A stretch of 24,488 nucleotides of DNA from the IMG/VR virus record IMGVR_UViG_2579779149_000006; one strand, given 5' to 3'. This document shows, piece after piece, positions 1 to 18,314 of this stretch (the stretch's first letter is position 1; the number at the start of each line of letters is the position of its first letter). Position numbers and translations under genes: made by a program. The notes under the pieces were generated by a model that saw only the letters and a program-made list of their open reading frames with translations, was not told where the DNA came from and did no database searches. This DNA is from a virus (taxonomy: Duplodnaviria > Heunggongvirae > Uroviricota > Caudoviricetes).

Positions 1-636
1 TTATTTTCGTAAAAAAATCGACGCCCTATCCGGGTTTACTTTACATAGATGAGAAAGATATAGCGCCCTTCGATTAAATTTGCCTTCAGTAAGGTCATCA
101 ATGTTTTTCCTGAATGGGTACTTAATCCGTGCAGCTATGTCAAAGTCACTAATGCTTGCATGAGCTTTGGTAAGTTTAGCTATCCCATAAGTGCCATAGC
201 CAAAGTAGCAACAGGATATATATGCTATGCAGATATCATCTGCTGTTGTTGCTTTCCTGATAAGAATGGCTAATATTTGCTCTCTTATTTTTCTTCGAAC
301 TGTTTTCTCATATCTCTTAGTTATTGTTCTAACAAACTGTTGGTCTATAGTACTTGCGCCTTGATGAATGTTTTTAAATAATCTCAGATATATAGTTCTT
401 AAAATAGCAACTGGATCAACTCCCCTGTGTAATAGTTGCCGATGATCCTCAGCCACTCTTAATATATCAATTAAAGATAAAGATATAGATCTTTCACTTA
501 TCGAACTAAGCCTTATATAATCAATACATTTATAATAATCTTCCATAATACTTTTAACCCTGAATTTAAAAACCATTTCTGCCAATAGCAAGTATGGCAA
601 TGACAGTAAGGTAATCAAAAAGCGCTTCGCTGCCAT
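1..636 (-). CDS. GT51-family (monofunctional peptidoglycan glycosyltransferase-like) membrane-anchored protein, ~211 aa
   Basis: ORF 1..672 with stop TAA at 1-3. The track start at 672 is a TTG; first in-frame ATG is at 634-636 with AGGAG 3 nt upstream. N-terminal hydrophobic anchor RFLITLLSLPYLLLA. Motifs AEDHRQLLHRGVD, GASTIDQQ, RKIREQ and YFGYGTYG match GT51 motifs (EDxxFxxHxG, GxSTIxQQ, RKxxE, glycine-rich YFG). AT-rich, unlike the flanking P2 genes. Confidence 0.6.
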   Translation of the reverse strand: MAAKRFLITLLSLPYLLLAEMVFKFRVKSIMEDYYKCIDYIRLSSISERSISLSLIDILRVAEDHRQLLHRGVDPVAILRTIYLRLFKNIHQGASTIDQQFVRTITKRYEKTVRRKIREQILAILIRKATTADDICIAYISCCYFGYGTYGIAKLTKAHASISDFDIAARIKYPFRKNIDDLTEGKFNRRALYLSHLCKVNPDRASIFLRK

Positions 637-1163
637 TTCACGTCTCCTGATGTATCTGCAGCGGTGGACCAAAATTTGCCATGCATAGCATCTGCATTCA
701 CCTTTTGGAAATACAGCAAAATGGTATAACTCCTTAACTCACCTTCCATTTTTATATTCAATGAGGCATGATTTTTCCTTAAGTAATTTCTCTTAATCAC
801 CCCTCGAACCTCTCCAATACTTCTATGCTTACCAGTGTATGGTCTTATATTATTATTGTTTTCAACGTCTTTTGTTTTCTCAATAAACCCTTCAATATTA
901 TTGTTGTCACATATTAAAGTCAGTGTATAAAACGTTTTTAAATTCAAGTAAGGATTATACGCAGATTTTAGTGTTTTACATTCAACTTCAAAGACGCCCG
1001 AAAAATTTGGTGGCGGTTTAATATATTCTTTGAATATAAAAATCAATACAGCCGCAATAAGAGTAGCAACAGCACCACTTAAGATTTGATTTGTGGAAAT
1101 AAAGGTTAGAGATGGCTCAAGCCATTCCCAAAATATGTTGAAAAAATCAGTAAATTTATTCAT
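615..1163 (-). CDS. hypothetical single-pass membrane protein, 182 aa, no recognisable domain
   Basis: ATG at 1161-1163, stop TGA at 615-617. Predicted TM helix ILSGAVATLIAAVLIFIF near the N-terminus. The 3' end overlaps the downstream GT51-like gene by 22 nt (translational coupling). AT-rich, with a 280-bp AT-rich leader at 1164-1441. Confidence 0.5.
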   Translation of the reverse strand: MNKFTDFFNIFWEWLEPSLTFISTNQILSGAVATLIAAVLIFIFKEYIKPPPNFSGVFEVECKTLKSAYNPYLNLKTFYTLTLICDNNNIEGFIEKTKDVENNNNIRPYTGKHRSIGEVRGVIKRNYLRKNHASLNIKMEGELRSYTILLYFQKVNADAMHGKFWSTAADTSGDVKWQRSAF

Positions 1164-1664
1164 AAATTTCTTTTGATAGTATGTTTTTTATATGATGTTA
1201 CATTTTTGAGAAAAAAGCAACTTCGCCGATTAAAAACTATCTCGCTGGAATTTATGGGCATCATGTTATGAATACATTCTTATCCCATAGGGAATAAAAC
1301 CCTATCTATAGAATAAAAATCCAAATTTTATCTTAATAAATCAGATAAAAGATACTTATACTACAAAGGTACTTGTGTAAGATCAAACTTTTAATCCTAT
1401 AAGTTATAGATTGAAGCAACTGTGACTTATAGTGCGCACACTTAAGAATCTCCGATGACGATGGTAGCAGGAGACAACTTTTGACAACTCACTCCTATTA
1501 CCAACTTACTGACTTGCTCCGCGTTGAGAGATTTATAGTTATGCCAGCACTGTCCGCTTCTGGCACATTGCGGAAGGGCTAACGGCCCGGAGTAAGTGAG
1601 TAACGGATGTTTGCAAGCACTCTTACTGCTGACAATGATCGCATCCAAGATAAAATAGGTGGTG

Positions 1665-2180
1665 TCAAGGTACAGGTTCACCAATATAAGTGTGTGTGCA
1701 GCAACGACATGTCACCTTAACGTCATCTCTTGTGATTGAAAGGTTTACCTGTTGCAGAATTCCATTCTCATCAACAAACAGACCTGGGTAAAAACTGCTT
1801 TCACCAATGCAGACTAAATCCCTTCGCTGATGCTCATGTAGCGCGACCAACCAGAATACCGGCTCGGTGGTATCAAGACGTCCACATACTTCGCTGAATA
1901 TTTCATTCCACGGCTTGCCAATCTCTTTGATCAGAAAATAAAACAACGGTGTGTAGTCTCGGCCACGCTTCTGTCTGCTATGCATTGTCTCGCGCTTTAC
2001 CAGTAGCTCATCTCCGACTTTTTTGCGATTTCGTTCCCACCGATACTCAGCACCCGGATTATTAGAATGGTGCCGCGTCGTCGTGTTGACGCTGCGATAT
2101 AGTTTACGGGACTTATTCTGCTGATGAATACGCATAGCTCGATCTCGTACATCCTTTCTTTTGTGGGCCAGTAGCCCCAT
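1665..2180 (-). CDS. hypothetical protein, 171 aa (uncertain; possibly a decayed gene)
   Basis: ATG at 2178-2180 with AAGG 5 nt upstream. Basic N-terminus and a CxCC cluster at the C-terminus. The 1442-2356 interval is open in three overlapping minus-strand frames, so the coding assignment is ambiguous. Confidence 0.3.
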   Translation of the reverse strand: MGLLAHKRKDVRDRAMRIHQQNKSRKLYRSVNTTTRHHSNNPGAEYRWERNRKKVGDELLVKRETMHSRQKRGRDYTPLFYFLIKEIGKPWNEIFSEVCGRLDTTEPVFWLVALHEHQRRDLVCIGESSFYPGLFVDENGILQQVNLSITRDDVKVTCRCCTHTYIGEPVP

Positions 2181-2366
2181 TCAGACCTTGTGTTACTGTA
2201 TAAAAAATGAACACCCTTAAAGGCTGTATCATTCTGCTCAAATACCATCCTACTGACAACTACCAAAGGTCGGATTCTGGCACGGAGCGGACAATCAAGT
2301 AGAACTGAAGGCCCGCTATGTGCGAAAACAGACAGACACAGATTGATCACAAACATACCTGAACCA

Positions 2367-3296
2367 TCAGGATTTTATATCCTTGTGTGGCTCTAATCCT
2401 TCAGAAAGGACTTTATCAAATGCAGCATATTGCCTTTGTAATTTACTTTCACATTCATACAGACTCTTTAAACTAACATCATCCATAGATTGAAAGAGTC
2501 TTTTGTTATCAACTAAATAGGAGTATGCATTAAAAATAGAAACATCCATTATATCTTTCAGTTCTTCATCAGATAGTTTAGTCTTTTTACTTAAATGCTT
2601 AATCACATGTGACTGCAATGCATTTGCGCGAACCATGGCGGGAGGATATTTGCTATTCTTCCCTTCCAATTTACATAGAAAATTAAAGAAAAAAAATATT
2701 GATGTTAAAGATAAACTAACAAGTGTTTTCTCTTCTATTTTTTTCTCCGGGGCCTTTTTTATTGTATTTAAGACGACATCTGCAACAAAGTATGCTGAGA
2801 ATACATCTGCATCATACTCCATTAATGTTTTAATCTGATCTTCACTAAAATCTTCATCGACTACATTGTACCCCATTGAATAAACTTGGTAATCACCAAT
2901 CAGGTTTATTTCTTTACTTTTGGCTAATGATAAGTGTCCACGAGCGACATGTCCAAGTTCATGACCGAAAATATGGTGCCAAATAAAGACACACCCTAAC
3001 GCAACTGGAGCTTCCTTTTCTTTCAAGTCAGGGTATTCTCTCATGAAGAATTCTATATTTTCAGAAAGAATGTCAAACGTTATTGGTATCAACCCACTCA
3101 ATAAAATAATATGGAAATTATTGTCTTTTTTTTGTGCGTGAGCATTAAGGTTAAAATCGTCCTTAATGTGCAGAGCTATTTTTTTACCATCCTCTTCAAT
3201 AGCGGAGTTTATCTCTATCAATCCTTTTTTGAAGGTATCGTAAACAGGCAAGAAAAAACCACTTTCTATTTTCGAAATTTCATCACGGGTCATCAT
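2367..3296 (-). CDS. M78 (ImmA/IrrE-like, DUF955) zinc-metallopeptidase-domain protein, 309 aa
   Basis: Tandem ATG at 3291-3296 with AAGGTGG SD 5 nt upstream. HExxH motif in FGHELGHVARGH plus a downstream acidic/aromatic motif EYDADVFSAYFV, resembling the ImmA/IrrE third ligand region. Strongly AT-rich, with a poly-A/T tract inside the gene. Confidence 0.6.
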   Translation of the reverse strand: MMTRDEISKIESGFFLPVYDTFKKGLIEINSAIEEDGKKIALHIKDDFNLNAHAQKKDNNFHIILLSGLIPITFDILSENIEFFMREYPDLKEKEAPVALGCVFIWHHIFGHELGHVARGHLSLAKSKEINLIGDYQVYSMGYNVVDEDFSEDQIKTLMEYDADVFSAYFVADVVLNTIKKAPEKKIEEKTLVSLSLTSIFFFFNFLCKLEGKNSKYPPAMVRANALQSHVIKHLSKKTKLSDEELKDIMDVSIFNAYSYLVDNKRLFQSMDDVSLKSLYECESKLQRQYAAFDKVLSEGLEPHKDIKS

Positions 3297-3495
3297 ATTT
3301 CCACCTTTAACATGAAATCTAATTCTAATTGATAGGTCTACTTAGTTTCGCTCATTGTACTATTTTATTAAAGTGGGTTGAAGGTTACATTTTTATATAG
3401 CATGTCTACTGTCCCTTTGTGGCACAGAGCGGACTGTCAGATTAGTTTTTACTCTGTGCCATAGATGAGTAATCTCACACCAGATCTAATACGAT

Positions 3496-4074
3496 TTATT
3501 GTGGCATTTCAGGCCATTCTATATCCGGAGCATCTTCCGGCTGAACGCGATTCAGTAGCACACGGTATTTTTTCCAGTGTGTCAGACTTAACTTTTCTTC
3601 CTCGGTAGCCATATCTAAATCGACAGCATCCTGCAGCGTGGCAATAATTTCACCTGCATATGCAATCAGCTCTTTCTTCTGAGAGTCAGCCGCTCTGACA
3701 AGCGCATCACGCTCTGCATTCTCATCATTCACCCACGCATTTCCGTTCCATTTCTGATAATCCCCATCCGGGGAAATGGCTGTCACGTCTGGAGGTAATG
3801 CGCCAAGTTCAGAAATATAAATGGCTGCTCCTGTTTTTGTTTCATAGACAGTCTTTCCACGATGGTCTTCCACCAGATCCCATTTCATTTCATCTGCATT
3901 GAAAACGGCGGCAAAACCCACCGGAATATCTGGAGGTGCAATGTCTGTACTGTTTGCAGGAAGACCTGTATGCGGCGGAATATATGCGTCACTTTCGCCA
4001 ATAAATTCATTGGTTCCATCAAGTAAATTGAAAACGCGGATAGTTTGTGTCTCTGCACTCATTCTGAAAGTCAT
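3496..4074 (-). CDS. G: tail fibre assembly chaperone (P2 gpG-like), 192 aa
   Basis: ATG at 4072-4074 overlaps the H stop (TAATG). Lies immediately downstream of the tail fibre gene. Sequence has typical Tfa features (N-terminal MxxxMSAET... and WNGNAWV). Confidence 0.85.
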
Positions 4075-5849
4075 TATGCCAGCCTCACAATATAGTTATA
4101 CGCAACGTTTTTTACGGTGTTCTCTGAATTACCTGTGGCACTTACAGTGACGGTATGACTATGCGCGCCAATCGCAATGGAATGGCTGTGAGCACCAATG
4201 CCAACCGTGTGATTATGCTGACCAATGTCGACTGTATGGGCGTGTGCTCCCGCAGAGCTTGACACCTGGTTGGTTCCTGATACCTGTACGCGTTGTTTAC
4301 CCCCGATGGAGTCACCACCGTAACGACCACCGACAGTGTGTGTATGCGCTCCCGTATTGTTTGTCGTTTTTGTGCCGTGGTTAAACGTGCTGACCGTTTT
4401 TGTCCCGTAATCAAACGAACTGGTTGTTTTCGTCCCTAAATCCGTACTGGATGCACTGGCACTGTGGGTATGTGATTTAATTCCGTCCTGTTCCTGTGAT
4501 AATACGGCGCGACCACTGGCGGGTTTGCCCTTGATTGTCCAGCCGCGCATATCTGGAATCACCCCTGACGGATAAGCTACTGCAAGCAGGGGATAGGCTG
4601 CTTTATCAAAAGTCTGCCCCTGCATCAGGGCATAGCCTGTAGGTACTGAATCAGAAGGCCACGGGATTGGAGCACCTACCGGAAAGTTGTTGTACCCGTC
4701 ATGATGAATCAACTTCCAGCCTTTAAAAACACCTGCGCAAACTGCCGCAAAACCGATTACATCTCCATTAAAATCAATGCCAATAACAGTATTGTATCCC
4801 TGAGTATTGCTGTGTGCAGAGTTGATGTAGTGCTTCCAGGTGTGTCCTCCAGGCATTCCATTCTTTGCTGAGGAAGCATTAAAAAAGCCACCACGCGTAC
4901 GTAAATCAGTAGCAATATCACTTATATTTTCGGCGTACTCATTTAATCCCGCTCCTTTAGGTACTCGCTTGTTTGCATTGTCATTAGCAGCTTTCACTGC
5001 TTTCGGAGTCGCGGCAAGCGTTTCAGAATCGCTGTTGGTGGCACTACTTAGCTGGACAAGCCCTTTTCGTGCCGTGGTGGCGTCCTGTGCGGTGTATTTG
5101 CCATTAGCAAGGTCATATGCTGTCTTAACCGCCTTTGGCGTTGCTGCGAGCGTCTCAGATTCGCTGTTGGTGGCACTACTTAGCTGAACAAGACCTTTTC
5201 GCCCCGTGCTGGCGTCCTGAGCGGTATATTTTCCGTTAGCAAGGTCATACGCTGCCTTAACCGCCTTCGGCGTTGCGGCCAGCGTTTCAGATTCACTATT
5301 GGTCGCGCTGCTTAACTGAGTAAAACCTTTTGCAGTCAGTGAGGCGTCCGGATGGCGTCGTGACTGTTCGTGCTCTGCAATTTTGTCATCAACGTAATCC
5401 TGCGTCGCCATCACCGTTGTGGTGTCGATGGTCAGATCCACTGAGGCCACACTGCTGACGATAATGACCATGCGGCAGGTCTGCGAACGTCCTGAGCCTT
5501 CGGCAAGGGCAGGCTTATAACTTTCGGCCATGTTCGCCACGGCAATTAACGCACCGGTATCATCGTACAGACCAAGTTCACGCATCCAGAAACCGCCCAC
5601 CTCCGGCGGGATGACCAGCTCTGCGATAATATAATTACTGTGTCGATTGTCCTGACTGATTTTATTCAGGGCATGTCGCCAGACCTCATTAACAAGTTTT
5701 GTCTGTCCGGCATCCGGCACCGGCAATTGACCGCCACCGTCCCCGACGGCCATCGTGGTAATGTTGACCTTCCTGCCTCCCGGTGCAGTCGCCGCTGCCA
5801 GCTTTGCTGCACCGGCGGTAGTGATAACGGTTTGGAACTTTACGCTCAT
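4074..5849 (-). CDS. H: tail fibre protein (P2 gpH-like), 591 aa
   Basis: ATG at 5847-5849. Internal 44-aa repeats ([36 protein letters not shown]). C-terminal block GAPIPWPSD...[32 protein letters not shown] and repeated HxH motifs (GAHAHTV, GAHSHS), ending NYIVRLA, as in P2 H. Confidence 0.9.
4965..5330 (-). repeat. about 132-bp tandem repeat (about 2.75 copies) inside the tail fibre gene, encoding the 44-aa fibre repeat
   Basis: Protein repeats at residues about 174-217, 218-261 and 262-295 of H. Near-identical DNA blocks are visible around 5040, 5172 and 5304. Confidence 0.7.
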
Positions 5850-5859
5850 TATTCCTCAC

Positions 5860-6390
5860 TTATCCTGGGTAAACCGTAATAACATCGCCGTCATAAGCCA
5901 CACCACCGGCAAACAGATAACCGGGGATGTCCTGGGTAATATTCAGACCAATAAGGTGACGACTTGCAGGTTTGGCATCGGCAATCAGCCGTTCCATTTC
6001 CAGATACATCTCCTCCGTGATGCCGCTTTCCAGTACGCCGATATCAAGCCGGAAGGTGCCGGGCGGGTCGCTGTTTTCCCACCACTCCGTCACGTTGATG
6101 AGATAGCCGAGCGGCTCCACCACACGGCGAATCGCACCAATAGTGCCCTTATGGCAGTGAATGAAATACGCATCGCGGATAACGGCGCGTTTTGTCGCTT
6201 CCGGCCACTTTTCATCCCAGCGGTCAACCGAAAATGACCACGCCAGCCACGGCAGCAGATTTGCCGGACAGGTGTCCGGGTTCCACAGCTCACGAATACT
6301 GACCGGCGTTTTTTCAATTTCCGCACAGGCTTTTGCGGCGGCAACTTCAAGCGGTGATGAGCCTGTCGGCAGCAGTCGCGAATCATTCAT
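5860..6390 (-). CDS. I: baseplate/tail protein (P2 gpI-like), 176 aa
   Basis: ATG at 6388-6390, stop TAA at 5860-5862. Size and position (between J and H) match P2 I. Confidence 0.85.
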   Translation of the reverse strand: MNDSRLLPTGSSPLEVAAAKACAEIEKTPVSIRELWNPDTCPANLLPWLAWSFSVDRWDEKWPEATKRAVIRDAYFIHCHKGTIGAIRRVVEPLGYLINVTEWWENSDPPGTFRLDIGVLESGITEEMYLEMERLIADAKPASRHLIGLNITQDIPGYLFAGGVAYDGDVITVYPG

Positions 6391-7291
6391 CCGAGCCTCC
6401 GGTCACGACGCTGTATTCGGTACAGAAAGACGCCTGCGTACTGTTGAGCACGATGTCGGCCAGTGGTGCAGCCAGTTCGACACGCTGCACGCCTTCCACA
6501 TGCAAAGCGGCATAAATGGCAGACAGACGGATGTCGCGCCCCAGCCGGTGCTGTGCCGTGATATACGCTTCCAGTTCTTTCACGGCGGCCGCGCGAATGG
6601 GTTCTCTTTCAGGACCAGGGTAAAGGTAAAGCGTGGCGTTTATCTGGTATTCAACGATGGCAGCAGACTGCACGTTCACACGATCGGCCACCGGTCTGAC
6701 GTCCTCGCCATTAAGGGCGTTACGCACCACAGCCAGCAGGTCTTCGGATGCGACACCGTTATTTTCACGTGACAGCACAGAGATGGTGACACAGGCCGGA
6801 GACGGACTGGTGACAGAGATATCCGCGACACGCCCGTCGGCACTGCGACCATGATACTGATAGGCGCCCACCGACCCGGCGACGCTTAAACCTTCAAACG
6901 CCTGCTGAATACGCAGACGATAATCCGTGTCAGATTCCATCACTGCCGGTGTCGGCGGGATGGTCGAATCATCTGCCGGGGTGATAATCAGGCGCGCGGT
7001 GTTGTAATTGGCACCAATCACATCAAGGTCATTACCAGCGGCACAGGCCAGCATCACCGCCCGTGCGGCCTCATTCACACGCTGACGCCAGATAAGCTCA
7101 CGATAAGCATTTTCCTCCAGCAGTTTGACGAGAGGCTCGGATTCCAGCGTCAGGGTACGGGCAACCGCCTCCTGCTGGTCTTCCGGGTAAAGGGAAATCA
7201 GTGTCGCCTTGCGTTCGGCAAGAATGGTTTCAAAGTCCAGCTCCTCGACCACATCCGGTGCGGGTAGCTGGTTCAGGTCGATAATCGGCAT
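6383..7291 (-). CDS. J: baseplate assembly protein J (P2 gpJ-like), 302 aa
   Basis: ATG at 7289-7291. Overlaps the I start by 8 nt. Size and synteny match P2 J. Confidence 0.88.
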   Translation of the reverse strand: MPIIDLNQLPAPDVVEELDFETILAERKATLISLYPEDQQEAVARTLTLESEPLVKLLEENAYRELIWRQRVNEAARAVMLACAAGNDLDVIGANYNTARLIITPADDSTIPPTPAVMESDTDYRLRIQQAFEGLSVAGSVGAYQYHGRSADGRVADISVTSPSPACVTISVLSRENNGVASEDLLAVVRNALNGEDVRPVADRVNVQSAAIVEYQINATLYLYPGPEREPIRAAAVKELEAYITAQHRLGRDIRLSAIYAALHVEGVQRVELAAPLADIVLNSTQASFCTEYSVVTGGSDE

Positions 7292-7295
7292 GGTT

Positions 7296-7643
7296 TCAAC
7301 TCACAGGGATGGTTAACGAAAGTTGCTGGCCGGTGTCGTTGTGCTGGCCGTTTAACGTAACTGTCATTCGCCCGTCAAAACTGCGCTCAGTGGTGACGGA
7401 TGACAGGGTGACGCGGGGTTCCCATTTCAGCACCGCCATGTAACAGGCGACCTTAATCTGCAACTCAAGCGCCGGGGTCTGCGGCTGGTCAATCATTGAC
7501 GCCAGCAACGAGCCGTAATCACGACGCATCACCCGTGAGCCGACCGGTGTGCGCAGGATATCGCCGATACTCTGGCTGATATGCTCAAGGTCAGTGACAG
7601 TCAGGCCATCACTGCAATTCATTCCGAGATAACGCGCTGTCAT
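7296..7643 (-). CDS. W: baseplate protein W (gp25/GPW family), 115 aa
   Basis: ATG at 7641-7643 overlaps the V stop (ATGA). 115 aa, as P2 W. Confidence 0.85.
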   Translation of the reverse strand: MTARYLGMNCSDGLTVTDLEHISQSIGDILRTPVGSRVMRRDYGSLLASMIDQPQTPALELQIKVACYMAVLKWEPRVTLSSVTTERSFDGRMTVTLNGQHNDTGQQLSLTIPVS

Positions 7644-8275
7644 AGAGGACTCCCGGTTGTGCCGCCGCTGTCGCCGGGGTGTTTATGGGTATGCAGCACC
7701 TTACCGTTTGATGAGAGTTCACCACCGGTGTGTTCAATGTTGCCGCGCATCGTCCCACCCTTCTGCACTTCCAGCGTGCCGGTAGTCAGTTTGTTAGTGC
7801 AGACCACCTCCGGTGTGTCCAGGGTGACGCGGGTTGATGCTTTCACCATGACCACCGGCACCGTGGCAGTAACAGAATCAGAAGCCGTCACGCTGGCCGT
7901 TTTAATTCCGCTTACCGTGAGTGCACTGGTTTCGGGTTCATACTCAATCACCGCCCCGTCAGGGAAACGGATATGCAGGGCATCCGCCGACGCAGACGGC
8001 GCGGGGTTATCGCCGGAATAAATCCCCGGCAGAACGAACGCCGTGTCGAGTTCACCGCCCACAGCCAGAATCAGCACCTGTTCCCCCACGGAAGGTGCCC
8101 ACCATGTGCGCGAACGTCCGGCACGATGGGTCAGCCACTGAAGCCAGTCGGTGCACATGCCGCCGGTCTGCACACGGCAGCGACCGGCGTTAAGGTCGGT
8201 TTCGACGATAATGCCGGTGCGGATCATGTTGCGCAGTGCGCGCGCGAGTTCCTGAATATTTGCGAGAGTGTTCAT
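7640..8275 (-). CDS. V: baseplate spike protein V, 211 aa
   Basis: ATG at 8273-8275. 211 aa, as P2 V. C-terminal HxH region (HTHKHPGDSGGTTGSP) is typical of the spike tip. Confidence 0.85.
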   Translation of the reverse strand: MNTLANIQELARALRNMIRTGIIVETDLNAGRCRVQTGGMCTDWLQWLTHRAGRSRTWWAPSVGEQVLILAVGGELDTAFVLPGIYSGDNPAPSASADALHIRFPDGAVIEYEPETSALTVSGIKTASVTASDSVTATVPVVMVKASTRVTLDTPEVVCTNKLTTGTLEVQKGGTMRGNIEHTGGELSSNGKVLHTHKHPGDSGGTTGSPL

Positions 8276-8341
8276 AACGGGAAGGATGCCGCCGGGTCAT
8301 ACCGGCGGCAATGTGACGATGAGGTGTCAGGAATGGCACAA

Positions 8342-8794
8342 CTAACGGTCGAGGTGAGCCAGAATAATCTCTTCAATCATCTGCACATCCTCACCGGTAA
8401 AGCCGAGCAGAGGACGCGCCGGATAATCAATTTTCTTACCGTCTTTCCGGGTTTCTTCCGACAGACCGAACTGATGCACGCTGGCGATTTTCGGTGACTT
8501 CCCGCCGTAAAACTCCATTGATGCCTGTTCCGGGCTGGCGTGGATATGCAAAAAACGACTGGTGATAAGTTTCGCAAACATTTTTCGCTTAACACGACCA
8601 GTCTTTTTTCTGGCGCTCTGCTGCTGGCGTGGCGCGTAGGGTGTGCCGTCCGGGGCTTTCTGAGCCATCACCCGACGCTGCTGACTCTGCCGCAGACGCT
8701 TCGCCAGCTCTGCACTCAGCCGCCGACGCCCTGACGGTGACAGCGACTCAATAAGTCCGGTCAGCCGGTCTTCAAAACGCTTAAACTCATTCAT
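8342..8794 (-). CDS. S: tail completion protein S, 150 aa
   Basis: ATG at 8792-8794, stop TAG at 8342-8344. 150 aa, as P2 S. Overlaps the R stop. Confidence 0.8.
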   Translation of the reverse strand: MNEFKRFEDRLTGLIESLSPSGRRRLSAELAKRLRQSQQRRVMAQKAPDGTPYAPRQQQSARKKTGRVKRKMFAKLITSRFLHIHASPEQASMEFYGGKSPKIASVHQFGLSEETRKDGKKIDYPARPLLGFTGEDVQMIEEIILAHLDR

Positions 8795-9254
8795 CCCACT
8801 TGCTCACCAGTTCGCCATTGATATAAAGCTCCATCGGGCGGGTGACCGGCTCCGGCGGCGTGGGTTCCGGGATATTCTTCACATGCAGCGCGCCGTCCAC
8901 CTCACTGACCAGCGTGCGCTCGGTCAGCATCAGGCTGATGCTGATATCAAAGCTGCTGTCATTGTTGATGTCTGCATAAAACGTGAAGCCCTTTTTCTGG
9001 CCTTCGTCGGTGGTCATGATGTCGGGCTGATTTTCCCGCAGCCACGCCAGCACCGGCACGATGAGCAGGTCAAAATCACCGGTAAAGTCGGTCACAATGA
9101 CATTGAGCGTGTAACGCTTTTCGAATGACAACGACGCCGCCAGTGTGGAGGCAATACTCCCGTTATCCACGAATATCCGCAGCATATCGGGGTTAGTTTT
9201 CAGCACCGTGACGGCATCAGTCAGCGCCCTGCGCAGGCTGTCGGGTTTGAGCAT
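8787..9254 (-). CDS. R: tail completion protein R, 155 aa
   Basis: ATG at 9252-9254. 155 aa, as P2 R. Confidence 0.8.
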   Translation of the reverse strand: MLKPDSLRRALTDAVTVLKTNPDMLRIFVDNGSIASTLAASLSFEKRYTLNVIVTDFTGDFDLLIVPVLAWLRENQPDIMTTDEGQKKGFTFYADINNDSSFDISISLMLTERTLVSEVDGALHVKNIPEPTPPEPVTRPMELYINGELVSKWDE

Positions 9255-9507
9255 CGTTTTCGTCCTGACAGTGTTTAATCATTTTTACCTGGCTGGCACA
9301 ACGTGCCAGCGCGTTCTCGAGCTGCCGGATATCGGCACTTAAATCGCCGTTCGTCTCCGGGTCACTGCCCGGCATCGGGCAAAGGCTCACTTTCGGGCAG
9401 GCGTTGGCGACAATCACTGGCGTCGGTGCAGGCGGGGCGCTGGTGCAACCGGCGCACAGCATCAGGCAGGTCAGCACCGTACCAGCGGCGAAAATCTTCG
9501 TTTTCAT
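9217..9507 (-). CDS. lysC: o-spanin / Rz1-like outer-membrane lipoprotein (P2 LysC-like), about 96 aa, embedded out of frame in lysB
   Basis: Internal ATG at 9505-9507 inside ORF 9217..9624. Signal peptide plus lipobox MKTKIFAAGTVLTCLMLCAGC. Proline-rich mature part. Overlaps the 3' half of lysB in another frame and the R start. Confidence 0.6.
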   Translation of the reverse strand: MKTKIFAAGTVLTCLMLCAGCTSAPPAPTPVIVANACPKVSLCPMPGSDPETNGDLSADIRQLENALARCASQVKMIKHCQDENDAQTRQPAQGAD

Positions 9508-9787
9508 TAAGTAACCTCGTGATGGTTTTCTCGCGCTGTGCTTCACGCTTCGCGGCGTTCTCCAGTTCCTGACGCAGTGCCACCTGCGCCAACTCGTTTT
9601 TGTCTGCCCTGGTGAGGGCAGCATGAAGCTGATTTTTCAGCATGATGATGGTCGTCTGCTGTTCACTGGCGACGTTGTTCACCCTGTCCAGCGAGGCGCG
9701 CAGGCTGGCGTTTTCATGCTTCGCCAGAAACAGTCCCGCCACCGCCAGCGATAACAACACAACCAGCACAATCATCAGCTTTGACAT
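9362..9787 (-). CDS. lysB: i-spanin / Rz-like protein (P2 LysB-like), 141 aa
   Basis: ATG at 9785-9787. N-terminal TM anchor LMIVLVVLLSLAVAGLFLA followed by a charged coiled-coil-like region. 141 aa, as P2 LysB. Confidence 0.7.
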   Translation of the reverse strand: MSKLMIVLVVLLSLAVAGLFLAKHENASLRASLDRVNNVASEQQTTIIMLKNQLHAALTRADKNELAQVALRQELENAAKREAQREKTITRLLNENEDFRRWYGADLPDAVRRLHQRPACTDASDCRQRLPESEPLPDAGQ

Positions 9788-10200
9788 GGTTCCCGCCCCT
9801 CAAGACGCTGACGGCAGGCCGTGCGTATCAGCCGGAAAAACAGCGACGCCACGAGATAAATCAGCGCAGTAAAAATCCACCCGGTGGCAACCAGCGAGAT
9901 AAACGTCGCCACCATCACTACCAGAGCCGCCGCCCGTCTGCACCACGGCACCGGCTGCAAAAACAGCGACGTGACAATCTTCACGGCCAGCGATTCCGGT
10001 GGCAACTCCCGCCCGTAGCGTTCCAGCACATACTCCGTGGCATACACGCCAACACCACCGGCAACCACACAGATAACCGTCACCAGAATCGCCCAGGCAG
10101 CGACAAAATTGACGGCCACGCTCTGCGGGTAAATCAGGGACAGTGCCAGCATCAGCGCCAGCGACACATTCAGCATCAGTGAAAGGGATAATTTCTTCAT
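9775..10200 (-). CDS. lysA: lysis-timing membrane protein (P2 LysA-like), 141 aa
   Basis: ATG at 10198-10200. Multi-TM hydrophobic protein. 141 aa, as P2 LysA. Position between K and lysB. Confidence 0.65.
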   Translation of the reverse strand: MKKLSLSLMLNVSLALMLALSLIYPQSVAVNFVAAWAILVTVICVVAGGVGVYATEYVLERYGRELPPESLAVKIVTSLFLQPVPWCRRAAALVVMVATFISLVATGWIFTALIYLVASLFFRLIRTACRQRLEGREPCQS

Positions 10201-10214
10201 GGTGTTTACTCCGT

Positions 10215-10712
10215 TTAAGCCAGTACGCCGCCAGCGGTACGCCAGACGGTGACCAGTTTTTCCAGTGAATGCTCACGCTGACCGTAACCGGCACCCGGCA
10301 GGGACGCCCAGATATTTCGACAGCGTGAAATGGCGCGCTCAATACGTCCCGCCCGGATGTCATCCAGCGCACCGCGTTCGCGGATCAACTGAATGGCGAG
10401 TCTGTCCTGTGACAGCGGACTGAAATCCGGCAGGGCAAGCTGTTTGCGGTAATGCGGCCAGAACAGGTAAAGCTGCTGATAGCGACCGGAGGCCGTGGAT
10501 TTTTCACCGCGACGGTTAAACACCTTCGCCGGTCGGCCATGTGCGAACGGGTGGTCACTGTAGTCGGTGAAGATTTCCGGCTTCCCGTCCAGTCCGGTGA
10601 CTATCACGTCATAGCCACGGTTTTTCGTCAGCGGATGATTCGCCGTCCCTTCGGACACCGCCAGCATGTCGAGAAAGGCGGCGATATTCTGGTGCGTGTT
10701 AATTACCGGCAT
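10215..10712 (-). CDS. K: endolysin (P2 gpK-like lysozyme), 165 aa
   Basis: ATG at 10710-10712. 165 aa, as P2 K. Position follows the holin. Confidence 0.85.
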   Translation of the reverse strand: MPVINTHQNIAAFLDMLAVSEGTANHPLTKNRGYDVIVTGLDGKPEIFTDYSDHPFAHGRPAKVFNRRGEKSTASGRYQQLYLFWPHYRKQLALPDFSPLSQDRLAIQLIRERGALDDIRAGRIERAISRCRNIWASLPGAGYGQREHSLEKLVTVWRTAGGVLA

Positions 10713-10993
10713 TACGGTTTCCCCCTGCCCTTAAAGCGGCGCTGAATGGCAATCTCAATCACCTGATAACCGGCGATACCCAGCATGGAGCCGATGCCGC
10801 ACACCGCAGGCAGTGACAGGTCAGGAAACTGCACCAGAACAACACCGGCAACCATCGAGACAAAACCACCGAGCAACATGCGCCCGATAAACAGACGCGG
10901 GGTGATGGGTTCACCACCGGCAAGCACCTTGCCGACAACAATCAGCACCCCAATCATGAAAAGCGACAGGACGCTTTTTTCTTCTGCTGTCAT
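10712..10993 (-). CDS. Y: holin (P2 gpY-like), 93 aa
   Basis: ATG at 10991-10993. Small protein with TM segments and a charged C-terminus (RRFKGRGKP). 93 aa, as P2 Y. Confidence 0.8.
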   Translation of the reverse strand: MTAEEKSVLSLFMIGVLIVVGKVLAGGEPITPRLFIGRMLLGGFVSMVAGVVLVQFPDLSLPAVCGIGSMLGIAGYQVIEIAIQRRFKGRGKP

Positions 10994-10996
10994 GCG

Positions 10997-11200
10997 TTAC
11001 TCCCACAGATTGACAGTTTCAGCCACGGGCGCGGTCTGAACGTCGGGCAGTTCGACGGCGGTGCCGTGTGGCAGCACCGCACCCAGTTCAGCCAGTCCCG
11101 GATTTGCGGCGAGCACGGTCTCAACCACGCCCTCAGTGCGCCCGTAATACCGGACACAAATGGCGTCGAGCGTGTCGCCCTGTAGCGCAAAGGTCTTCAT
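10997..11200 (-). CDS. X: tail protein X (P2 gpX-like), 67 aa
   Basis: Internal ATG at 11198-11200 of ORF 10997..11269, overlapping the L stop by 1 nt. 67 aa, as P2 X. Confidence 0.75.
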   Translation of the reverse strand: MKTFALQGDTLDAICVRYYGRTEGVVETVLAANPGLAELGAVLPHGTAVELPDVQTAPVAETVNLWE

Positions 11201-11709
11201 CAGATTTGACTCACGATGCAGCGCGGCTTGTCCTGGATGCGCGCCACTGCCCAGCGCATATCCCGCCACAACTCATCAATGGTGCTGTCAATGCTGTCGG
11301 CCTTCTTGTCGCCTTTCGCACTGGCATCCACGCCGCGGTAACGCTCATAAAGCGACGCGGTCGCCATCGCACACACGGCGCGCTCGTAGTAAAATACTTT
11401 GATGCTTTCACCGTCGATGTCGTCCGCCGGGACGTCCGCCAGACGCGTAAAACCGGCGGCAATTTTCTGTTCGCGGTACTCGTACAGCTCCGCATTCGTC
11501 TCCGCCATACCTGACTTGATGGCCTCACGCAGACGGGCGGGGGCGACGGTCTGCTCAAGGCGCATACGTTCCCGGACGCGCTTCGGGTCGATATCGGGAA
11601 AAAAGAACGTGTTTTTAATCACCGGCTCGTCGCCTGCCGGTTGCGGGATGACCACCGTACCCTCACCGGATACAGGAGCCTCCTTTCGCGGAATAATCAG
11701 CGTCATCAT
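11200..11709 (-). CDS. L: head completion/stabilisation protein L, 169 aa
   Basis: In-frame ATG pair at 11704-11709 (MMTLIIPRK...); the first gives 169 aa, as P2 L. Stop TGA at 11200-11202. Confidence 0.85.
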   Translation of the reverse strand: MMTLIIPRKEAPVSGEGTVVIPQPAGDEPVIKNTFFFPDIDPKRVRERMRLEQTVAPARLREAIKSGMAETNAELYEYREQKIAAGFTRLADVPADDIDGESIKVFYYERAVCAMATASLYERYRGVDASAKGDKKADSIDSTIDELWRDMRWAVARIQDKPRCIVSQI

Positions 11710-11808
11710 GACTACCTCTGAAAAGTCGGGCGGTGGACGCCGGTGCAGTGTCAGATGATTCACCCTCACTGACCGGCGTGCCGCCCTGGCGCGGGGCGCA
11801 TTCGGTTG

Positions 11809-12552
11809 TTAACTGGCTTTCTTTTTCGGGCGTCCACGTTTTGCCGGGGTCACGCTCCGGGTCTTACGCGGGGTGCGGGTGACCGCTTTGGGCTGCGGCT
11901 CCGGCTTCGGTTTCAGCTCCCGCTCCAGTCGTTCAATCTCTTTTTTAACGCCTGCCTGACAGTCGAGCTGTGTCGCACGTTGCAGGTGCGCCAGCGCACC
12001 GGCGGCATCACCAGCGTCACGCAGAAACAGACCGGTGATTTTGTGCAGATTTGCGCGCACTTCATCAGGCATGTCAGCCGTGGCGGTCAGTTCAAGGGTG
12101 TCCGTCAGCAGGCGGGTATCCACGGATTCACCGGCAGCGTGGGCGCGCATGGCCGCGAGCGCGACCTCCTCGGTGAACATGTACGGCGGGGTGCGGCGGT
12201 GTTTACCCGGCATGGTCAGACCGTACTTCAGGGCATAACGGGCAATCTCCAGCGCACCGGCAATATCGCCGGTATCCAGACGCCACAGCATGACCGTCAT
12301 CAGAATGTCATCCTGTGCACCTTTGCCCTGCTCCAGCACGCCGTTCACCCACGGCAACCAGAACGGCAGCAGTTCGCGTTTTTTCGCGGCCTTCAGCTCT
12401 TTTGAATAAATCGCTTTCAGTGTGCGCTGGTCTGCGGCGAGCTTAACCAGCATCTGCTCATAGACAGTTGCATGTCGCAGCGGGGCGGCTTCCCGCTGCG
12501 CGGTCATCGCTGCCGAGACCCGCATCATGTGGCGCTGTGCGGGACTCGTCAT
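11809..12552 (-). CDS. M: terminase small (endonuclease) subunit M, 247 aa
   Basis: ATG at 12550-12552. 247 aa, as P2 M. Basic C-terminal tail (KRGRPKKKAS). Confidence 0.85.
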   Translation of the reverse strand: MTSPAQRHMMRVSAAMTAQREAAPLRHATVYEQMLVKLAADQRTLKAIYSKELKAAKKRELLPFWLPWVNGVLEQGKGAQDDILMTVMLWRLDTGDIAGALEIARYALKYGLTMPGKHRRTPPYMFTEEVALAAMRAHAAGESVDTRLLTDTLELTATADMPDEVRANLHKITGLFLRDAGDAAGALAHLQRATQLDCQAGVKKEIERLERELKPKPEPQPKAVTRTPRKTRSVTPAKRGRPKKKAS

Positions 12553-12555
12553 CGG

Positions 12556-13629
12556 TTACGCTCCCGGCTCTGCGGTCGCTTTAGCCGGTGTGGAGAAGTC
12601 ACCGACCTTGATTTTTTCCACCAGACAACCGGCGGCGTAGTCTTCCACCACGTAATCAATGTTCATTGACTCGTAGTTCTCCACGCGGTCGAGTTTCGGG
12701 TTTTCCTCAATCACGCGGCGATGGCTGTCATCCATGTAGTAGATGGACAGGTTTTCCAGCTTCGTGATGAGCATCGCATCCGCCGGGAAGTACGGGACGC
12801 GTACCGCTGGCAGGTTGCCGATGCGTTTCTGGCTGATGATGACGTCAGCGGCCAGCATTTCGCTGTTGTCCTGCTCCTTGTTGACGATGGGAAAATACTT
12901 GTCCGCCAGTAGCTGACGTCCCACAATCACCACAAGGTCAGGTTCTTCCTGATACCACGGCTCAATCAGGTTGTTGGTCGCATCCATCACCAGTGCATCA
13001 AGGCTGGCATAATCACCGCCCTTACCCACGCGGATGACCTCAGAGGTGGTGCGGCCTTCCTCGTCAGTGACCTTGCTCATCACGCGCGCCGGGGCTTCAT
13101 TGCGGTATTTCTGCAGCCAGCCGACCGCCACATCCTGCAGCATCGGATTACTGTTGCGGTCAGAGGTTTCGGCACGCTTCACGCCGTTAAAACCGGCCAT
13201 GATGAAATCAAGGGACTGGCGTTTGATAATGGCGTTACGGATACGGAGCTGGAAATCCTGATAACGCGCCCACAGGTCCAGCGTTTTGTAGCGGATATAA
13301 AAATCGAAGTTAACCTGGTCGCATTCGTACTTGTTTGACGCCAGCTTCGAGAAGTCCTTCGGCTGACGCTCGGTGCCACCGGCGGTGTCGGTGGTGCTGG
13401 CAATGGGGCCGGTGACACCGATACCAATTTTTTCCCCTTTCATTTCGCTGACCGGCACAATGTTGATGCGGGTCAGAAAGTCAGAGGACTCCTGCATGGT
13501 GTTCATCAGGGTCTGGGTGACCGACGGTTCAACGGTGAATTTTTTCGACACATCACCGGCGTCGATGCCGTTCAGTTCGGCAACACGGGACAGGTAGGCA
13601 TTAAATTTAAAACGGGTTTCCTGGCGCAT
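12556..13629 (-). CDS. N: major capsid protein N, 357 aa
   Basis: ATG at 13627-13629. 357 aa, as P2 N. Lies between scaffold and small terminase. Confidence 0.9.
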   Translation of the reverse strand: MRQETRFKFNAYLSRVAELNGIDAGDVSKKFTVEPSVTQTLMNTMQESSDFLTRINIVPVSEMKGEKIGIGVTGPIASTTDTAGGTERQPKDFSKLASNKYECDQVNFDFYIRYKTLDLWARYQDFQLRIRNAIIKRQSLDFIMAGFNGVKRAETSDRNSNPMLQDVAVGWLQKYRNEAPARVMSKVTDEEGRTTSEVIRVGKGGDYASLDALVMDATNNLIEPWYQEEPDLVVIVGRQLLADKYFPIVNKEQDNSEMLAADVIISQKRIGNLPAVRVPYFPADAMLITKLENLSIYYMDDSHRRVIEENPKLDRVENYESMNIDYVVEDYAAGCLVEKIKVGDFSTPAKATAEPGA

Positions 13630-13687
13630 ATTTGTTCCTGAAATTAAGGGTTAATCGTGAAGGTTTTCCCGGACTGACTGACGCCGG

Positions 13688-14542
13688 TCAGCAGTTCGTC
13701 ATCAGGGCGTCTCCGCCACCGCCGGTGGCCTTGCTGCGGCGCTGCTGGGTCAGACTTTCGGTGTTGTCGAGACTGTTTTTCAGGCGGGTGAATGCCTGGC
13801 TGGTTTCATCCGCCCTGTCAGTCACCTCCTGCTTAAGTGCGGAAAAGGCGTTTTCCATCTCAGCGAGGCGCTGCTCAGTGGCGCTCAGTTTTTCCTGCAC
13901 ATGTTCAGCAACAGCGGTCACCGCTTCATGCACGTCATTCAGACGGGCGTCATCGCTGGCCTGTTTGCGGCCAAAAATGGATTTCACCTTTTCGGTCAGG
14001 GCGGTGAACACGGTTTCAGGCAGGTCTTCAAATTCCAGCTCAACGGGCGTTGCCACTGAAATCAGGTTTTCAGGGCTTAATTTGAAGCGGTTCAGGGGGT
14101 TGTGTTTTGCCGTGCGGCAGAATTCCAGGTATTCCGTGCCGAGGCTTGCCGGGTCATCGGTGACGGCCAGACCCACCAGATAACATTTGCCGGTATTGGC
14201 AAAGTTCGGCTGAATTTCCATTGAGGTGTAGACCTTCTGCGCGGCCTTGTTCATCGCGATAAGGTCATCGGTCGGGGTGATTTTCGCAAACAGCGCCCAT
14301 TTGCCTTTCAGCGCCGAATCATCGTCAATCTTTTCGGCCTTCAGTTCGACCACATCGCCATAACGCTTAAAAATACCGTCAGGCAGGATGCCGCGCAGAT
14401 GTTCCAGGTTAATGCGGCAACCATAGACTCGCGGGTCAAAGGTTTCGGCCATTTCCTGAATATCCTGCGCACTGATGACACGCCCGTCACAGGTGTCACC
14501 CTCAACGCCGATACGAAAGAATTTTGAGACTTTTTTTGCCAT
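13688..14542 (-). CDS. O: capsid scaffolding protein O, 284 aa
   Basis: Start taken at internal ATG 14540-14542 (MAKKVSKFF...), giving 284 aa, as P2 O. The longer ORF to 14608 begins on a non-ATG codon. Stop TGA at 13688-13690. Confidence 0.85.
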   Translation of the reverse strand: MAKKVSKFFRIGVEGDTCDGRVISAQDIQEMAETFDPRVYGCRINLEHLRGILPDGIFKRYGDVVELKAEKIDDDSALKGKWALFAKITPTDDLIAMNKAAQKVYTSMEIQPNFANTGKCYLVGLAVTDDPASLGTEYLEFCRTAKHNPLNRFKLSPENLISVATPVELEFEDLPETVFTALTEKVKSIFGRKQASDDARLNDVHEAVTAVAEHVQEKLSATEQRLAEMENAFSALKQEVTDRADETSQAFTRLKNSLDNTESLTQQRRSKATGGGGDALMTNC

Positions 14543-14715
14543 TGTCAGGAGTCCTGAATAGTGATTAGAGGAGTCACATGTCGGCATCAGTTTCCCGACG
14601 ATGCGCATCCTCTGCCATCAGTCCCGGATGGCTTATCACTGACACAACAGCACCTTAGCGAATCGCGGGGCGCGACTCAGTAGCCTTGCCGTGTATTCAT
14701 CACGGCGAGGTATTC
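14543..14715. promoter_or_regulatory. divergent late-promoter region between O (leftward) and P (rightward)
   Basis: 173-bp intergenic region between two divergently transcribed late operons, as for P2 P_O/P_P. Contains small dyads (for example GCCGTG-N7-CACGGC near 14680) but no clean TGT-N12-ACA activator site could be placed. Confidence 0.4.
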
Positions 14716-16488
14716 ATGACCATCACCACAGACACCACTCTTTTACACGACCCGCGTCGTCAGGCGGCGCTGCTGTACTGGCAGGGGTTTTCCGTGCCGC
14801 AGATTGCCGCCATGTTGCAGATGAAACGCCCGACGGTGCAGAGCTGGAAACAGCGCGACGGCTGGGACAGCGTTGCCCCCATCAGCCGTGTCGAAATGAG
14901 TCTGGAAGCGCGGCTGACCCAGCTCATCATCAAACCGCAGAAAACCGGCGGTGACTTCAAGGAAATTGACCTGCTGGGACGCCAGATTGAACGACTGGCA
15001 CGGGTCAACCGCTACAGTCAGACCGGCAACGAGGCAGACCTTAATCCGAACGTCGCTAACCGCAACAAAGGCGGGCGCCGCAAACCGAAAAAGAATTTTT
15101 TCAGTGACGAGGCCATCGAAAAGCTGGAGCAGATTTTCTTTGAGCAGTCTTTCGACTATCAGTTGCACTGGTATCGCGCCGGGCTTGAGCACCGCATCCG
15201 CGATATCCTGAAATCCCGCCAGATTGGCGCGACGTTTTATTTTTCCCGCGAGGCGCTGCTGCGCGCCCTGAAAACCGGTCATAACCAGATTTTTCTGTCG
15301 GCCAGTAAAACGCAGGCGTATGTGTTCCGCGAATACATCATCGCCTTTGCCCGGCTGGTTGACGTTGACCTGACCGGTGACCCGATTGTCCTGGGCAATA
15401 ACGGCGCAAAACTGATTTTTCTCGGCACCAACTCCAACACCGCACAGAGCCATAACGGCGACCTGTACGTCGATGAGATTTTCTGGATCCCGAATTTTCA
15501 GGTACTGCGTAAGGTGGCATCAGGTATGGCCTCACAGAGTCACCTGCGCTCGACCTATTTCTCCACCCCGTCCACGCTGGCGCACGACGCCTACCCGTTC
15601 TGGTCGGGTGAACTGTTCAACCGGGGACGCGCCAGCGCCGCCGAACGCGTGGAAATCGACGTCAGTCATAACGCCCTTGCCGGTGGGCTTCTCTGTGCGG
15701 ACGGCCAGTGGCGGCAGATTGTCACCATTGAGGACGCGCTGAAAGGCGGCTGCACGCTGTTCGACATTGAGCAGCTCAAACGTGAAAACAGCGCCGACGA
15801 TTTTAAAAACCTGTTCATGTGTGAATTTGTTGACGACAAAGCGTCGGTGTTCCCGTTCGAGGAGCTGCAACGCTGCATGGTCGATACGCTGGAAGAATGG
15901 GAAGACTATGCACCGTTTGCCGCAAATCCGTTCGGCTCCCGCCCGGTATGGATTGGTTACGACCCGTCACACCGTGGCGACAGCGCCGGATGCGTGGTGC
16001 TGGCACCGCCGGTGGTGGCCGGTGGCAAATTCAGGATCCTTGAGCGTCACCAGTGGAAAGGCATGGACTTTGCCACCCAGGCAGAATCCATCCGCAAACT
16101 CACCGAAAAATATAACGTTGAATACATCGGGATTGATGCCACCGGCCTCGGTGTCGGTGTGTTCCAGCTCGTGCGCTCGTTCTATCCCGCCGCGCGCGAT
16201 ATCCGCTACACGCCGGAAATGAAAACCGCAATGGTGCTCAAGGCAAAAGACGTTATCCGCCGTGGCTGTCTGGAATATGACGTCAGCGCCACCGACATCA
16301 CCAGCTCGTTTATGGCTATCCGCAAGACCATGACCAGCAGCGGACGCAGCGCCACCTATGAGGCCAGCCGCAGCGAGGAAGCCAGCCACGCCGACCTCGC
16401 CTGGGCGACCATGCACGCCCTGTTAAATGAGCCACTCACCGCCGGTATCAGCACTCCGCTGACATCCACCATTCTGGAGTTTTACTGA
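14716..16488 (+). CDS. P: terminase large (ATPase) subunit P, 590 aa
   Basis: Start taken at MTITTDTT (internal ATG of ORF 14686..16488), giving 590 aa, as P2 P. Stop overlaps the Q start (TGATG). Confidence 0.9.
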   Translation: MTITTDTTLLHDPRRQAALLYWQGFSVPQIAAMLQMKRPTVQSWKQRDGWDSVAPISRVEMSLEARLTQLIIKPQKTGGDFKEIDLLGRQIERLARVNRYSQTGNEADLNPNVANRNKGGRRKPKKNFFSDEAIEKLEQIFFEQSFDYQLHWYRAGLEHRIRDILKSRQIGATFYFSREALLRALKTGHNQIFLSASKTQAYVFREYIIAFARLVDVDLTGDPIVLGNNGAKLIFLGTNSNTAQSHNGDLYVDEIFWIPNFQVLRKVASGMASQSHLRSTYFSTPSTLAHDAYPFWSGELFNRGRASAAERVEIDVSHNALAGGLLCADGQWRQIVTIEDALKGGCTLFDIEQLKRENSADDFKNLFMCEFVDDKASVFPFEELQRCMVDTLEEWEDYAPFAANPFGSRPVWIGYDPSHRGDSAGCVVLAPPVVAGGKFRILERHQWKGMDFATQAESIRKLTEKYNVEYIGIDATGLGVGVFQLVRSFYPAARDIRYTPEMKTAMVLKAKDVIRRGCLEYDVSATDITSSFMAIRKTMTSSGRSATYEASRSEEASHADLAWATMHALLNEPLTAGISTPLTSTILEFY

Positions 16489-17522: not shown

Positions 17523-17526
17523 ACAT

Positions 17527-17549
17527 CGCCGCCTGCGGGCGGCTTTTTT
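17527..17549 (+). terminator. rho-independent terminator after Q
   Basis: GC-rich hairpin GCCGCC-tgcg-GGCGGC followed by TTTTTT, immediately 3' of the Q stop. Confidence 0.6.
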
Positions 17550-17691
17550 ACACCCCGTCATCACGCACTCACACGCTCACCACCGCACAAAACACCCCGC
17601 AGACACACCAACGCCTCAACTGGCAGACTAAACGCCATCACGACGCGCTCAGACGCTGAAAAAATAAAATCAGCACCACCGCCAGCGCGCA

Positions 17692-17710
17692 GTGCTTTCC
17701 CCGCCTCGCC
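17692..17710. other. cos cohesive-end sequence (19-mer)
   Basis: GTGCTTTCCCCGCCTCGCC is the reverse complement of GGCGAGGCGGGGAAAGCAC, which I recall as the P2/186 19-nt cohesive end. It sits 170 bp past the portal gene, where P2 cos is expected. The match is from memory, not a database check. Confidence 0.55.
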
Positions 17711-17994
17711 CGCCCGCTTCACGTGGCGGTTTTAATGCAGTTGCATAGATACTATGGATCCGCACCAGTCCTGACCGCACGCAGCCTGAACGGACATCCC
17801 CAGCGCATGCAAAAACATTCACTTGTTGCATGCATAGCTTTTTAAGTACGCCATACCGCAACTGTACATTTTTAAGCAATTGGCAACTTTAAAAAATTTA
17901 CATTGCTTTCAAGACCTTATCATCCGTAGTCTCTGTTTTTTACTTTGAGCTACATCAATAAAATCTCAAACATGTTTAATGCAAAGCCCTTGTT

Positions 17995-18048
17995 ACACAA
18001 CATAGAATGTATGTCTAGAAACAACGACATACTATATGTTGTGTTTTT
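17995..18048 (+). terminator. long imperfect AT-rich hairpin followed by a T-run (terminator-like or structured RNA 3' end)
   Basis: Arms ACACAACATA (17995-18004) and TATGTC (18010-18015) pair with GACATA (18026-18031) and TATGTTGTGT (18035-18044); loop 18016-18025; followed by TTTT at 18045-18048. Confidence 0.3.
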
Positions 18049-18302: not shown

Positions 18303-18314
18303 TATGCTTCAAAC

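Follow-up and report, generated by a model that had tools for sequence, protein, structure and literature searches.

The GT51 glycosyltransferases, of which MtgA and the GT domain of class A PBPs are familiar examples, rank among the core targets of antibiotics, and to our knowledge every characterised GT51 domain works outside the cytoplasm. Among described anti-phage systems, those closest to the gene pair considered here use the S-2TMβ effectors Cap15 (CBASS) and OptE (Panoptes), in which a small soluble β-barrel follows a membrane element. The S-2TMβ effectors are defined by that element being an obligate two-pass one, and the enzyme that accompanies them is a nucleotide cyclase. A published prediction, that of the Min-Wnt/Lipocone proteins, envisages immune effectors that attack lipid II on the cytoplasmic side and so stop wall synthesis, in a form of antiviral suicide. 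The pair described below, carried by a P2-like prophage, combines parts of these known kinds, a barrel on a membrane helix and a GT51 enzyme, and the combination is undescribed. Neither protein matches any model of PADLOC-DB v2 at E ≤ 1, and a literature search for a link between GT51/Transgly and phage defence or Cap15 found nothing relevant, in agreement with the preliminary description of this DNA, which knew of no defence system built on a GT51 domain.

The window, by which we mean the whole 24,488-nucleotide stretch analysed (IMG/VR record IMGVR_UViG_2579779149_000006), is a P2-like prophage with tail, baseplate, lysis, capsid, terminase, portal and replication genes at about 3500-21000, and with low-GC cargo at 1-3495, downstream of the tail-fibre assembly gene G (Table 1). 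The pair had been called AT-rich, and GC content is indeed 0.31-0.35 in positions 1-1500, compared with 0.55-0.61 in the phage core. The sheath gene FI lies just past the window start, as read in a genome with an identical copy; the cargo is therefore between G and FI, at what is termed the G-FI locus. Phage P2 itself carries fun at this locus. The pair had initially been placed next to the tail-fibre genes, in a known defence hotspot of P2-like phages. The region is the same, but the pair is not a direct neighbour of those genes, as two unrelated cargo genes (for proteins of 171 and 309 aa) intervene. Rousset et al. surveyed a different hotspot, the A-Q locus, although Vassallo et al. identified the fun (G-FI) locus as the second defence-enriched P2 locus and found three new defence systems there. 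The expectation that the locus is variable and holds foreign, exchangeable cargo held up in a survey of four other P2-like prophages, all of which have different content at G-FI: an invertase cassette in two, an IS66 element with a small ORF in a third, and a SIR2 protein in the fourth. The A-Q (old/tin) hotspot of the window prophage, at 17523-18604, spans about 1.1 kb with no ORF longer than 88 aa, so that the cargo of this phage is at the G-FI locus instead.

Table 1. Coordinates of the gene pair, its protein features and the neighbouring cargo. Positions are those of the window unless a locus handle is given (L001, E. coli CE0011b; L014, a lambdoid prophage).
Feature	Position	Strand	Remarks
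GT51 (Transgly) gene	1..636	minus	211 aa; ATG at 634-636
GT51 N-terminal hydrophobic helix	residues 6-24		conserved LSxP[YF] motif
GT51 motif 1	E63-D64...H70-G72
GT51 motif 2	G93-x-S95-T96-I97-x-x-Q100
GT51 motif 3	R115-K116-x-x-E119
GT51 motif 4	around Y139
GT51 motif 5	R190
Overlap, partner 3' end and GT51 start	615..636	minus	22 nt
Shine-Dalgarno for GT51 gene	644..648	minus	AGGAG; in partner coding sequence, 7 nt upstream of GT51 ATG
Partner gene	615..1163	minus	182 aa; ATG at 1163, TGA at 615-617
Partner N-terminal helices	residues 2-24 and 26-48		one strong TM at 26-44
Partner β-barrel	residues 56-179		8/9 strands
Leader upstream of pair	1164..1584	minus	AT-rich; travels with pair
171-aa protein gene	1665-2180		cargo
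Repeat element, ~75 bp	2255-2345; L001 11610-11700; L014 7535-7625		L001 copy ~310-390 bp beyond window start
309-aa protein gene	2367-3296		cargo; HELGH metalloprotease-like motif, weak M48 match (E=0.08)
Gene G	3496-4074		tail-fibre assembly
260-271-aa protein	L001 10648-11463		beyond window start, between GT51 gene and FI; CxxC...EH start, weak HNH_5 match (E=0.014)

The downstream gene of the pair encodes a complete GT51 domain in which the five motifs and both catalytic glutamates are kept. Pfam Transgly (PF00912) matches the 211-aa protein at E=1.6e-22 (80.2 bits against a cut-off of 27 bits), and a profile of 21 members of its family aligns residues 47-200 to residues 24-186 of Aquifex PBP1a, the whole GT domain, at E=1e-28. 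The AF2 model (pLDDT 89.4) has the mostly helical, lysozyme-like GT51 fold, and its top Foldseek matches are the solved GT51 structures 3nb6, 2oqo, 3vmt and 3hzs (prob 1.00, TM 0.55-0.65). Profile and structure searches thus agree with the first reading of the protein, and the four motifs quoted in that reading are all present in the translation. An alignment of 13 diverse members, covering Enterobacterales, other phyla and four fusion proteins, shows E63, D64, H70, G72, G93, S95, T96, Q100, R115, K116, E119, Y139 and R190 to be invariant. Retention of the motifs and of both glutamates suggests that the enzyme is used as an enzyme.

In fold, motifs, catalytic glutamates and N-terminal hydrophobic helix the protein is like MtgA and the GT domain of class A PBPs, but it belongs to a distinct, compact, AT-rich subfamily that is found on mobile elements, is always coupled or fused to a barrel protein, and is predicted to face the cytoplasm. 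Family-specific features are the LSxP[YF] helix, a nearly invariant Cys37, EDHRxxxH, and QGASTIEQQFVR. The NCBIfam PBP and MtgA models align to the same stretch as Transgly, far under their equivalog cut-offs; the MtgA equivalog TIGR02070 gives 37 bits (cut-off 183) and the PBP1A subfamily model 80 bits (cut-off 509).

The 182-aa upstream partner had been regarded as unrecognisable, and the window protein gave no useful match in Pfam, NCBIfam, PHROGs or PADLOC; it nevertheless has a clear predicted fold. In the AlphaFold model (pLDDT 84.8) two N-terminal helices, the first of which is amphipathic in the window protein, are followed by an eight- to nine-stranded barrel, and this arrangement of a small soluble β-barrel C-terminal to a membrane element is also that of S-2TMβ effectors. 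One strong TM is found in 83 of the 85 aligned members of the partner family and in 120 of 149 representatives. Residues conserved in the family are G56, G92, E95, K96, R114, G121, R144, G162, F164 and G173, together with an STAADSSG motif. Sequence-level evidence for kinship with Cap15 is sparse: none of the 85 members matches Pfam S_2TMBeta at E ≤ 1, a PDB sequence search with two partner profiles returned no match and no Cap15, weak matches to the PADLOC "2TM Effector" models occur in three of the 85 (best E 3.5e-4), and an S_2TMBeta domain is named in one UniRef label, on P0037. Foldseek against the PDB, queried with the partner model, gave generic small barrels only (designed barrels, avidins, lipocalins), and for this reason the Cap15 link is taken as architectural and not as proven homology. 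On its predicted structure the partner would best be called Cap15-like in architecture without being filed as an S-2TMβ member, and part of the resemblance is generic.

The two minus-strand reading frames and their 22-nt overlap are as first described, and overlaps at related loci range from 4 to 61 nt. The overlap and the Shine-Dalgarno sequence inside the partner gene are consistent with translational coupling to the membrane protein, as had been proposed. Both genes occur together, in the same order and overlapping, at every locus of the window's family, and the two proteins diverge in step (85/83, 87/86, 67/67, 38/41, 34/43 and 30/40 % identity). The leader upstream of the partner gene is 99% identical in the lambdoid prophage L014, up to about window position 1584, and in Leclercia only its last ~60 bp are held in common with the window. 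Scans of the leader for promoters, terminators and Rfam families revealed no enrichment, no RNA family and no convincing promoter.

A much wider family emerges when the partner profile is compared with 1.84 billion representatives. Matches comprise 386 clusters at E ≤ 1e-3 and 244 at E ≤ 1e-10, most of them 160-200 aa long, and the family can be put at about 390 clusters at 50% identity from several phyla. Distant pairs of barrel and GT51 genes with a short overlap lie beside a Type ISP restriction enzyme, beside DUF2971 and HsdM genes, and on a short marine contig; at one further locus a 443-aa Transgly neighbour is divergently transcribed. Four representatives are single proteins in which a membrane helix, the barrel and Transgly follow one another in that order, and in one representative an Amidase_3 domain replaces Transgly after the barrel. 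By lineage, the partner enzyme of the barrel is GT51 in 13 and Amidase_3 in one.

These relatives bear directly on which side of the membrane the two domains occupy. Among 84 partners, the 15 residues before the TM contain on average 0.65 K/R and the 15 residues after it 1.96, the C-terminal flank being richer in K/R in 63 proteins and poorer in 11. About ten representatives have an extra N-terminal helix resembling a signal peptide, with a K/R-rich start and a 40-60-residue spacer, so that the barrel-proximal helix would be forced to run from outside to inside. From the charge bias and the signal-peptide variants the barrel is therefore predicted to be cytoplasmic, like that of Cap15 and of OptE. 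Each of the four fusions has a single strong TM. Their barrel and GT51 domains are joined by a weakly hydrophobic segment (Kyte-Doolittle maximum 1.23) that corresponds by homology to the N-terminal helix of the stand-alone GT51 proteins, and, as no TM intervenes, the GT51 domain most likely shares the side of the barrel. This helix is more hydrophobic (1.7-2.4) in the two-gene form, where it has K/R on both sides; that of the window protein is TM-like (KD 1.73, two K/R before it and three after) and ambiguous by itself. The relaxed hydrophobicity under cis tethering fits better with a membrane-surface anchor than with a true second span. The GT51 domain thus probably faces the cytoplasm, which would be unprecedented if this inference is right.

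The preliminary description had pictured an MtgA-like lipid II polymerase; its fold and motifs stand, but the fusions and the topology signals argue against the periplasmic placing that such an enzyme implies. A conventional polymerase acting in the periplasm as MtgA does, regulated or localised by the partner, would remodel or reinforce the wall of the lysogen, with superinfection exclusion at injection, resistance to lysis from without or another lysogenic-conversion phenotype as possible outcomes. The extracytoplasmic location of all known GT51 enzymes, the complete catalytic motifs, and the short K/R-containing tail of the window helix, as in bitopic PBPs, speak for this arrangement. It is difficult to reconcile with the predicted cytoplasmic barrel, with the fusions, or with a helix that is only amphipathic in several members (e.g., L033 and the fusions), and an exchange of the polymerase for an amidase would be unexpected in an accessory that builds wall. 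We consider a periplasmic polymerase distinctly unlikely.

The pair is an autonomous, horizontally mobile unit. By DNA comparison, the shared unit extends from about window position -336 to 1584. At the P2 G-FI locus it is present in the window, in CE0011b and in the IMG/VR contig L013. Elsewhere it occupies an integrase island that is found both on an E. coli chromosome and on an IncF plasmid, two kinds of lambdoid prophage site (between tail fibres and integrase, and between antiterminator Q and holin), a position in Serratia next to a P4-like element, an islet in the Leclercia chromosome, and a locus after a DUF4145 gene. It is also the only cargo of a 5,235-bp circular mobilisable plasmid. 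Like the P2 fun-locus cargo and prophage defence morons, the pair is of low GC, rare and exchangeable and uses the same G-FI locus, but it is found at lambdoid moron sites and on plasmids as well. A locus search with a narrower partner alignment recovered three genome loci and five viral loci, and blastn and tblastn searches of deposited phage genomes found none with the pair.

As to frequency, only two E. coli genomes have the pair among the 5426 complete ones searched, and one plasmid carries it as well. A P2-like sheath gene occurs in 1714 of the same genomes, and the cassette in a single P2-like prophage among them, a distribution that answers the concern, raised at the outset, that the pair might be a core P2 component. 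A role in the virion or in lysis was rejected on this distribution and on the occurrence of the pair on plasmids and chromosomal islets.

Another explanation is not anti-phage: the genes would act as a toxin-antidote or addiction system that keeps mobile elements stable, or would confer immunity to toxins directed at lipid II (colicin M-like or TelC-like). An overlapping two-gene layout is typical of toxin-antitoxin pairs, the small plasmid carries the pair as its sole cargo, and a lipid II-binding domain could shield the target of a toxin. That same plasmid, however, already has a RelE/HTH pair, toxin-antitoxin pairs are seldom fused into a single polypeptide, no locus has linked bacteriocin or secretion genes, and the prophage cargo sites and restriction-gene neighbours suit defence better; the explanation is therefore very unlikely.

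A general role in defence or exclusion is, from genomic context, a moderately probable reading of the pair. It is favoured because of the prophage cargo sites, the small plasmid, the restriction-gene neighbours, the compact coupled operon, the fusions and the Cap15-like partner, in a sample of loci that is small and does not amount to a statistical enrichment test. A specific version can be offered tentatively, at clearly less than an even chance: a phage-defence module, of the abortive-infection or exclusion type, in which the barrel protein controls and the GT51 enzyme is an effector that consumes lipid II. The upstream protein would be anchored in the inner membrane by one helix, with its small ligand-binding barrel in the cytoplasm like those of Cap15 and OptE, and the catalytically intact GT51 domain would be held at the cytoplasmic face by its hydrophobic N-terminal helix. 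The barrel protein would sense or gate; once triggered, the enzyme would act on lipid II before it is flipped, thereby trapping the undecaprenyl carrier and halting wall synthesis, and an infected cell in that state could not support the phage. In relatives, Amidase_3 might do an analogous job by stripping stem peptides from precursors.

The substrate class that GT51 and Amidase_3 have in common is that of the MurNAc-peptide precursors. The enzyme is favoured as the effector because the two domains share this class and not a product, and because the catalytic residues are strictly conserved. Five barrel homologs without an adjacent peptidoglycan enzyme weaken this assignment and would fit better with a barrel protein that has an activity of its own; one of them is flanked by Schlafen/AlbA_2 and GmrSD genes, and another has a ThsB-type TIR gene nearby. 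Such homologs support the main alternative, a defence module with the roles reversed, in which the barrel protein kills by oligomerising and disrupting the membrane, like Cap15 or OptE, and the GT51 or Amidase_3 enzyme makes, removes or reports a ligand derived from lipid II, in a Panoptes-like or CBASS-like manner. A ligand common to two enzymes that differ in product is hard to name, however, the single TM of most representatives is not the obligate two-pass element of S-2TMβ proteins, and the barrel family lacks S_2TMBeta membership at the sequence level, so that a killer barrel seems unlikely.

The pair differs from Cap15 and OptE systems in several respects: its barrel family has mostly one TM and is without a Pfam S_2TMBeta or Cap15 sequence match, and where those systems have a nucleotide cyclase it has a GT51 or, in a relative, an Amidase_3 enzyme. 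No cyclase of the CD-NTase or mCpol type was linked to it at the loci examined. With Min-Wnt/Lipocone it would share the proposed logic, by way of an unrelated fold and of glycosyl transfer in place of phosphoester cleavage, both cases being predictions.

Mobile GT51 enzymes that are coupled or fused to a Cap15-like barrel, and that probably face the cytoplasm, would put this domain to a new use. As a defence module the pair would link the logic of membrane effectors, known from CBASS and Panoptes, with the chemistry of cell-wall precursors and not with nucleotide signals, and lipid II and the undecaprenyl carrier would join the targets that bacterial immunity senses or sabotages. The most far-reaching proposition, a widespread immune module in which a cytoplasm-facing GT51 enzyme under a Cap15-like barrel kills or arrests the cell by polymerising lipid II on the wrong side, is doubtful; if true, it would be the first case of a GT51 enzyme at work within the cell, and likewise the first of a defence system with a cell-wall precursor reaction as its effector or signal. 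The system is small (1.2 kb and a leader), comes from E. coli and offers obvious point mutants, and is thus directly testable.

Several observations concern individual copies of the pair. Among complete genomes, that of E. coli CE0011b alone has the cassette in a P2-like prophage; there an IS2 is inserted in the tail-fibre assembly gene (L001 15561-16789) and the tail-fibre gene is annotated as broken. Both genes are intact in the window, which is therefore a different, intact copy. The cargo and tail-fibre proteins of contig L013 match those of the window at 100%. In the IncF plasmid copy (L020 9618-10163) the GT51 gene is annotated as a shorter product of 181 aa, and, as the family HMM still detects the full 211-aa frame, this is probably a difference in the annotated start site. 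Directly upstream of the pair in Leclercia is a small protein with a TolA C-terminal domain (L004 6943-7317). TolA is used in phage and colicin uptake, and this neighbour may or may not be a coincidence.

In the remaining cargo at the G-FI locus, the 309-aa gene lies upstream of the 171-aa gene, and the two may form another cargo module of two genes. A further 186 E. coli genomes have the 171-aa gene, at 96% identity, but not the pair; in L003, the one such genome examined, it is in an integrase island beside an unrelated 295-aa protein with an HExxH motif. The 260-271-aa gene moves with a five-gene cassette between the P2 prophage and the integrase island of the chromosome and of the IncF NDM-4 plasmid. 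Membership of the 309-aa, 171-aa and 260-aa genes in the system was considered and rejected, as all three are absent from every other locus of the pair and the 171-aa gene is so common without it. A repeat of about 75 bp, with two GTCCG...CGGAC hairpins and the core CTCCGTGCCAG, matches no Rfam family. Each copy sits shortly after a different cargo module (that of the 309-aa gene, that of the GT51 gene and, in the lambdoid prophage, that of a His_Phos_1 gene), and the repeat may be a shared terminator or a module-boundary element.
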